NCBI RefSeq assembly: GCF_055900595.2
Contig: NZ_CM148325.1
Direction: 5' to 3' (one strand)
DNA length: 64,000 bases
The translations under genes were made by a program, and so were the position numbers. Below, piece after piece: positions 27,711 to 28,511 of this stretch. The notes under the pieces were generated by a model, which did no database searches, was not told where the DNA came from, and worked only from the letters and a program-made list of their open reading frames with translations. The stretch's first letter is position 1, and each line of letters opens with the position of its first letter.

Positions 27711-28511
27711 GTGACAGAACCGTTAACCGAAACCCCTGAACTATCCGCGAAATATGCCTGGTTTTTTGATCTCGATGGAACGCTGGCGGAAATCAAACCG
27801 CATCCCGATCAGGTCGTCGTGCCTGACAACATTCTGCAAGGACTACAGCTACTGGCAACCGCAAGTGATGGTGCATTGGCATTGATATCAGGGCGCTCAA
27901 TGGTGGAGCTTGACGCACTGGCAAAACCTTATCGCTTCCCGTTAGCGGGCGTGCATGGGGCGGAGCGCCGTGACATCAATGGTAAAACACATATCGTTCA
28001 TCTGCCGGATGCGATTGCGCGTGATATTAGCGTGCAACTGCATACGGTCATCGCCCAGTATCCCGGTGCGGAGCTGGAGACGAAAGGGATGGCCTTTGCG
28101 CTGCATTATCGTCAGGCTCCGCAGCATGAAGACGCATTAATGACATTAGCGCAACGTATTACTCAGATCTGGCCACAAATGGCGTTACAGCAGGGAAAGT
28201 GTGTTGTCGAGATCAAACCGAGAGGTACCAGTAAAGGTGAGGCGATTGCAGCTTTTATGCAGGAAGCTCCCTTTATCGGGCGAACGCCCGTATTTCTGGG
28301 CGATGATTTAACCGATGAATCTGGCTTCGCAGCCGTTAACCGGCTGGGCGGAATGTCAGTAAAAATTGGCACAGGTGCAACTCAGGCATCATGGCGACTG
28401 GCGGGTGTGCCGGATGTCTGGAGCTGGCTTGAAATGATAACCACCGCATTACAACAAAAAAGAGAAAATAACAGGAGTGATGACTATGAGTCGTTTAGTC
28501 GTAGTATCTAA
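27711..28511 (+). CDS. otsB: Trehalose-6-phosphate phosphatase OtsB
   Basis: Track ORF 27654..28511 trimmed to GTG 27711 ([11 protein letters not shown]...) after GGAGGAG SD; HAD motif FFDLDGTL; matches K-12 OtsB (266 aa). Confidence 0.92.

Follow-up and report, generated by a model that had tools for sequence, protein, structure and literature searches.

Overlapping genes within operons are textbook material. For pairs that overlap in an ATGA or TGATG motif, coupling by reinitiation has been described (Huber et al. 2019, PMC6728339; PMC12548453). According to the review of Brown and Wade (2025, PMC12548453), coupling is most efficient at spacings of −4 to +3 nt, is reduced more by a longer overlap than by a longer spacing, and is absent at −25 nt. 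Tian and Salis reported an 11.6-fold lower reinitiation probability at an overlap of about −25 nt, and advised overlaps of at least 25 nt as a safeguard against reinitiation effects. These data on the dependence on distance were obtained with synthetic reporters and with gene pairs other than otsBA. Long overlaps have been described as "typically without translational coupling", and their commoner phase is the series −8, −11, −14 nt and so on (Huber et al. 2023, PMC10666635). Coupling has also been shown with reporters for che gene pairs (Lovdok et al. 2009, PMC2716512). In the literature searched, which did not include the original work of Kaasen et al. (1992/1994), no experiment on the coupling of otsBA was found.

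The stretch of DNA analysed here, in the following called the window, comprises 64,000 nt of the E. coli chromosome, extends from yedK as far as ruvB and contains araFGH, otsBA, uspC, flhDC, the mot and che genes, and flhBAE. The RefSeq annotation was transferred CDS by CDS via blastn from strain AMSCJX02, which is 99.96–99.98% identical to the window across positions 1–50.5 kb; beyond 54.9 kb the window is more diverged from this strain. Strain BE2-5 was tried as annotation source and dropped, as it is not collinear with the window (fliC region, indels). Compared with AMSCJX02 the window is a mosaic, with an identity of 95–96% at 54.9–62.4 kb (torZ to ruvC), which is consistent with recombination between lineages. 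The overlapping pair consists of the following elements:

27711 to 28511, plus strand: otsB CDS, trehalose-6-phosphate phosphatase, 266 aa, GTG start, TAA stop (RefSeq via blastn, 100% identity)
28486 to 29910, plus strand: otsA CDS, trehalose-6-phosphate synthase, 474 aa, ATG start (RefSeq via blastn)
28486 to 28511, plus strand: otsB/otsA overlap, 26 nt including the otsB stop codon
28509 to 28511, plus strand: otsB stop codon TAA, which takes its T from the third position of otsA Ser8 (TCT) and its AA from the start of Asn9 (AAC)

The two ORFs are real, co-directional genes, with the otsB stop 3′ of the otsA start. Each product matches solved structures along its full length: OtsB shares 72% of its residues with Salmonella OtsB (PDB 6UPB), and OtsA (WP_001295646.1, common to the window and K-12) is identical to PDB 2WTX, 1UQT and 1GZ5 from residue 1–2. 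Relative to otsB, otsA is read in the +1 frame, making the pair a "phase 1" long overlap. The 26-nt overlap and an AGGAG motif within the otsB coding sequence had been claimed in a sequence-only reading of the window, and the transferred RefSeq annotation gives exactly the same coordinates for the overlap, with the motif 8 nt before the ATG. An identical overlap is annotated in the RefSeq record of K-12 MG1655, the published K-12 coordinates (b1896, 1978212–1979636; b1897, 1979611–1980411) also yield 26 nt, and a 120-nt junction sequence is at least 99% identical in 5371 of 5417 complete E. coli genomes. The overlap is already known, being present in every RefSeq annotation of E. coli.

Several features of the surroundings are worth recording. 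An upstream in-frame ATG at 27654 would extend the otsB ORF to 285 aa, whereas the RefSeq start is the GTG at 27711 (266 aa). Between araH and otsB a terminator-like hairpin of 11 pairs with a T-rich tail behind it is found at 27582–27609, in agreement with separate transcription units for otsBA and araFGH. The search for an internal otsA promoter yielded only matches to 9 of 12 consensus positions, all of them far from the junction; the five sites compare with 2.3 ± 1.7 expected in shuffled sequences, a weak excess.

Among the described systems, the phase-1 overlaps of Huber et al. (2023) resemble otsBA most closely. The genes lie on the same strand, −26 fits the series of lengths, the upstream ORF enters the downstream ORF up to the next chance stop, and no single mutation shortens the overlap to −4 or −1. 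In contrast, the length is unusually stable at otsBA, being kept in 73 of 77 species (see below); this is likely due to the position of the stop in the highly conserved residues Ser8-Asn9 of OtsA. The coupled ATGA/TGATG pairs share their geometry with nine other junctions of the window, and four relatives of E. coli have an ATGA at the otsB/otsA junction itself, whereas the E. coli otsB stop lies 23 nt 3′ of the otsA start codon and thus outside of −4 to +3. The che pairs are located in the window and are polycistronic like otsBA, but their genes are separated by gaps. The fused TPS-TPP enzyme of Thermoproteus tenax (TPSP, PMC3634074) has in common with otsBA that the two activities are genetically linked; it is a single polypeptide in the order synthase-phosphatase, whereas otsBA consists of two ORFs in the order phosphatase-synthase and in different frames. 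None of 77 related loci has an in-frame otsB-otsA junction.

Overlaps are found in 11 of the 45 same-strand adjacent gene pairs of the window, and otsB/otsA has the longest one. The ten others, with lengths computed from the transferred RefSeq annotation, are:

709 to 712, minus strand: yedE/yedF, 4 nt (ATGA)
4478, minus strand: fliS/fliT, 1 nt
12284 to 12287, plus strand: tcyL/tcyN, 4 nt
14267 to 14280, minus strand: yecU/yecF, 14 nt, the second long phase-1 overlap of the window
15392 to 15395, plus strand: uvrY/uvrC, 4 nt (GTGA)
33067 to 33070, plus strand: motA/motB, 4 nt
44272 to 44279, plus strand: flhB/flhA, 8 nt
46350, plus strand: flhA/flhE, 1 nt
55920 to 55923, minus strand: cmoA/cmoB, 4 nt
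57967 to 57970, minus strand: yecD/yecE, 4 nt

The sequence-only reading had named nine shorter overlaps, all of which are real, but had missed yecU/yecF. The frequency of overlaps in the window and the predominance of lengths of 4 nt and 1 nt agree with published genome surveys. The nine short overlaps lie within the spacing range for coupling by termination-reinitiation, and by analogy with tested pairs coupling is plausible for those of 1 nt and 4 nt. Several of the latter lack any SD motif.

The length of the otsBA overlap depends on the start codon of otsA. Three further elements near this codon have to be considered:

28473 to 28477, plus strand: otsA Shine-Dalgarno motif AGGAG with an 8-nt spacer, within the otsB codons AGG-AGT (Arg-Ser)
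28446 to 28472, plus strand: A-rich tract 5′ of the SD motif, rich in CAA and AAA, encoding the Gln/Lys/Glu-rich tail of OtsB
28477 to 28482, plus strand: alternative in-frame otsA starts (GTG at 28477, ATG at 28480), judged to be unused

If OtsA began elsewhere, the overlap would be shorter, longer or absent, i.e. an artefact of annotation. E. coli indeed has an in-frame ATG at −6 and an in-frame GTG at −9. We rejected both, since their spacers from AGGAG are only 0–2 nt long, and the ATG at −6, with its 2-nt spacer, occurs in just 32 of 77 loci; in contrast, the annotated ATG is kept at +1 in all 77. The sequence-only reading had considered that OtsA might initiate at a downstream codon; no in-frame ATG, GTG or TTG follows before codon 56. 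Residues 2–9 of OtsA (SRLVVVSN) are nearly invariant between species, showing conservation at the protein level, and the sequences of the deposited crystal-structure chains begin at residue 1–2 of the window ORF, although these chains were presumably produced with the annotated start codon and are hence weak independent evidence. The otsA start is correctly placed at the ATG at 28486, and an artefact of annotation appears highly improbable.

The SD motif of otsA is well conserved. An SD-like motif (AGGAG, GGGGA or AGGAGG) with a spacer of 7–8 nt is present in 72 of the 73 species with a 26-nt overlap. The OtsB residues encoded at this position vary between species (NRS, DRR, KGG, LRG) while the G residues stay, and therefore the nucleotides, not the amino acids, are conserved. 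Rare Arg codons of otsB double as the SD motif of the downstream gene. The duplex with the anti-SD has a binding energy of −6.9 kcal/mol, compared with a median of −6.0 kcal/mol in the window. Upstream of the motif, the A-rich tract forms one base pair in the 80-nt fold, is unpaired in the centroid of that fold, and is mostly unpaired in the 140-nt fold. Across species the consensus of this tract is rich in CAA. Judged from these predicted folds, it may represent an unstructured standby region. The site combines a conserved SD motif, a spacer within 5–9 nt and accessible RNA, as would be expected for SD-led de novo initiation. The wider MazF "regulon" model is disputed. In one MazF study, otsA is listed with the mRNAs that are cleaved at an ACA, in this case 32 nt upstream of the start codon (28454–28456 in the window), and the cleaved otsA mRNA was still associated with polysomes, i.e. 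translated apart from otsB; this is an unvalidated entry of a screen.

To compare the junction between species, genomes representing species were scanned. Of 80 loci, 78 allowed the junction to be measured; one of these was left out for an assembly frameshift, leaving 77 usable loci. The usable loci belong nearly all to Enterobacteriaceae, with a few Erwiniaceae (Mixta, Pantoea), and the identities to the window proteins range from 98% down to 73% for OtsA and from about 50% up to 97% for OtsB. An overlap of exactly 26 nt, with the TAA in the identical place, is found in 73 of the 77 loci; because it is shared by so many species-level genomes, the comparison indicates that the overlap is old. 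The remaining four, i.e. Yokenella, a MAG, a Pantoea and a further record that bears the name "Enterobacter cancerogenus" and clusters with Pantoea, have an ATGA junction (4 nt) in the other frame. These four relatives end otsB in the frame that is used by neither gene in E. coli, and a shift of frame in the variable OtsB tail distinguishes them. In E. coli, this unused frame (28486–28530) contains a TGA (within ATGA) and two TAG codons in its first 18 nt. Two records attract attention for another reason. A contig of "Chryseobacterium sp. 18061" carries an otsBA of Enterobacteriaceae type with 86% OtsA identity, and the junction of "Enterobacter cancerogenus M004" is nearly identical to that of a Pantoea sp.; both records look mislabelled.

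The conserved length could be a consequence of dual coding. In all 73 species of the 26-nt class, Ser8 of OtsA is encoded by TCT. The synonymous codons TCC, TCA and TCG would leave OtsA unchanged, but each destroys the otsB stop and extends OtsB by 40 codons, and these three routes to a loss of the stop were never observed among the species. In the opposite direction, an enumeration of single-base changes found four routes to an earlier otsB stop inside the overlap, and all four damage OtsA (M1 or R3S). The information content of third codon positions is 1.38 bits for otsA codons 2–9 compared with 0.53 bits for codons 10–50, a decrease located at the otsB stop. Dual coding would account for the conservation of codons 2–9, with selection on the first ~10 codons being inseparable from it on the basis of four comparators without this overlap. 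In our reading of the alignments, the 26-nt length would be held by constraint without selection for coupling, because otsB, read in its own frame, first meets a stop in the conserved OtsA codons Ser8-Asn9 and because a single mutation cannot collapse a phase-1 overlap to −4 or −1. The comparison provides a clean case of dual coding freezing a junction.

The sequence-only reading had proposed translational coupling by gene overlap, most extreme at otsB-otsA. This proposal is supported in part only: its anatomy stands, but the length of the overlap is not suited as a measure of coupling strength. In the case of termination-reinitiation, ribosomes would stay on the mRNA after the otsB TAA, shift ~23 nt backwards and initiate again at the AUG of otsA, and OtsA would track OtsB. 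The two genes are co-directional and overlapping, the SD motif would be able to catch a scanning 30S subunit, published work has considered scanning in both directions after termination, and the otsB stop lies at or past the otsA ATG in all 77 species. The spacing of −26, however, is outside of the range for reinitiation (−4 to +3, tolerated to about −8/+10), and the cited reports find a backward restart to decrease with overlap, to nothing or by 11.6-fold at −25 nt. Reinitiation alone would also not call for a strong and conserved SD motif, and among the 1-nt and 4-nt overlaps of the window several do without one. For the che pairs of the window (35963–42284), the gaps are +20, +2, +14 and +10 nt with zero overlap; the coupled pairs do not overlap, and therefore an overlap is neither necessary for coupling nor its measure.

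Protein amounts point in the same direction. In a published deep proteome of a K-12 strain (BW25113 sheet), OtsA is present in 255 and OtsB in 42 copies per cell, a ratio of ~6:1, which is suggestive only, as it is based on four and two peptides, respectively, in one label-free data set and ignores turnover. Reinitiation predicts that the output of the downstream gene does not exceed that of the upstream gene, and these figures exceed it; a sixfold surplus is impossible from a 1:1 reuse of ribosomes. For comparison, MotA and MotB, whose genes overlap by 4 nt, are present in 374 and 279 copies per cell in the same data set. Termination-reinitiation as the main source of OtsA is therefore improbable in our view. 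Coupling at the otsB/otsA junction is probably weak, and the pair with the longest overlap of the window is probably the one that is least coupled by reinitiation.

The same figures would be compatible with the opposite view, i.e. that an overlap of at least 25 nt uncouples OtsA from OtsB, or that ribosomes translating otsB occlude the SD motif and the AUG of otsA, resulting in different rates for the two enzymes. The advice of Tian and Salis, the ratio of ~6:1 and the retention of the length in nearly all species would be in agreement with such an insulating or negative effect. Mutational constraint, however, explains the conserved length more simply, four species function with an ATGA junction, and occlusion lacks direct evidence. 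We regard a selected insulation or negative coupling as rather unlikely.

Another possible contribution of otsB translation is the opening of RNA structure. One local structure includes the start codon:

28479 to 28508, plus strand: weak local hairpin including the otsA AUG, −8.0 kcal/mol, with the SD motif outside of the hairpin

Ribosomes translating otsB would melt this hairpin and allow fresh 30S subunits to reach the SD motif, which would boost OtsA synthesis without a fixed stoichiometry, and a ratio above 1:1 would be compatible with it. The hairpin holds the AUG and ends adjoining the otsB stop, 80.8% of its cells are paired over 36 distinct sequences, and the reading of otsB through the otsA initiation region is invariant between species. 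In contrast, the 140-nt and 80-nt folds of the junction are no more stable than shuffled sequences (z values of +0.40 and −0.15), and the RNAalifold consensus of 22 species has just −2.6 kcal/mol and zero compensatory pairs. Counting of pairs in 74 sequences gave no sign of covariation in the hairpin, with 110 of 500 shuffles equalling or exceeding the observed value, and its invariant pairs are coding-constrained. The fold of the otsA initiation region (−10.1 kcal/mol, compared with a median of −8.7 kcal/mol among 66 genes of the window) is ordinary. In these folds and alignments no selected, unusual or covarying RNA structure stood out from the background, and the hairpin is probably incidental. 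RNA unfolding as the main route to OtsA is thus a doubtful alternative, albeit one that deserves consideration.

A programmed +1 frameshift, leading to an OtsB-OtsA fusion, was also considered, with prfB-type sites as the yardstick. Inspection of the codons showed that neither AUC-UAA-C nor UUU-AGU allows re-pairing of the P-site tRNA in the +1 frame, and in the absence of a slippery site in the overlap codons the frameshift was rejected.

Taken together, we favour, with moderate confidence, the explanation that OtsA is mainly translated de novo from its own SD motif, that ribosomes translating otsB have a modest influence at most, and that the length of the overlap is held by constraint. Ribosomes would bind de novo at the conserved AGGAG, placed in an A-rich and weakly structured stretch that encodes the low-complexity C-terminal tail of OtsB. 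Ribosomes that end otsB would add at most modestly, either by a brief opening of the weak AUG hairpin or by occasional backward reinitiation. Independent, SD-driven initiation is favoured because the SD motif is conserved, the structure is unremarkable, the OtsA:OtsB ratio is 255:42, and reinitiation in the published data is practically lost at −25 nt. The anatomy, the conservation of the junction and of the SD motif, the lack of RNA structure under selection and the constraint on mutations were observed directly; the relative shares of de novo and coupled initiation at otsA are what we infer.

Besides the −8.0 kcal/mol hairpin that includes the AUG, one group of observations counts against this preferred explanation. 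Of the 77 species, 73 have the otsB stop at +26 and four have it at +4; it never lies upstream of the otsA ATG. Within the 26-nt class, the tail of OtsB past the last conserved Trp occurs in seven different lengths of 23–32 aa, and in E. coli three single-base changes (at 28458, 28461 and 28464) would stop otsB 5′ of the SD motif and leave otsA untouched. That otsB never stops upstream despite the seven tail lengths and the three one-step routes suggests that selection keeps the otsA initiation region translated as part of otsB. In its final ~15 residues, OtsB is well conserved only where the SD motif, the ATG and the first codons of otsA dictate them. From this pattern it looks as if translation over the initiation region is selected and the tail peptide itself is not; such selection would be expected under a coupling model.

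These observations would fit a modest facilitating or tuning role of the otsB ribosomes for otsA. As a tentative suggestion, to which we assign a low probability, the last 15–20 codons of otsB could function as a "translated leader": ribosome traffic over them would tune otsA initiation, by unfolding or by occlusion, and set the ratio of ~6:1, and the 26 nt as such would perhaps not be what is preserved.

The otsB/otsA overlap carries little weight for discovery and has a modest practical value. Judging from the anatomy, a deletion or a 3′ tag of otsB must spare its last ~40 nt, otherwise the SD motif and the start codon of otsA are lost. Because close relatives have the alternative ATGA junction, otsBA would also offer a handy natural test case for the effect of long phase-1 overlaps, be it coupling, insulation or none.

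A further stop/start junction of the window concerns aspS and nudB. The aspS gene ends (TGA at 60613–60615) 1 nt before an in-frame ATG of nudB at 60617 (60613–60619 in total), and ~125 nt that are present in genomes of the AMSCJX02 type, including the usual first five codons of nudB, are absent. Translation from the ATG at 60617 would give a NudB that starts with MTYKRPV, compared with an N-terminus in K-12 that we take to be MKDKVYKRPV. A query of 125 nt across the junction is covered to at least 80% in 1668 of 5426 E. coli genomes; the shorter form, which makes the near-abutting stop and start, is therefore a common polymorphism.
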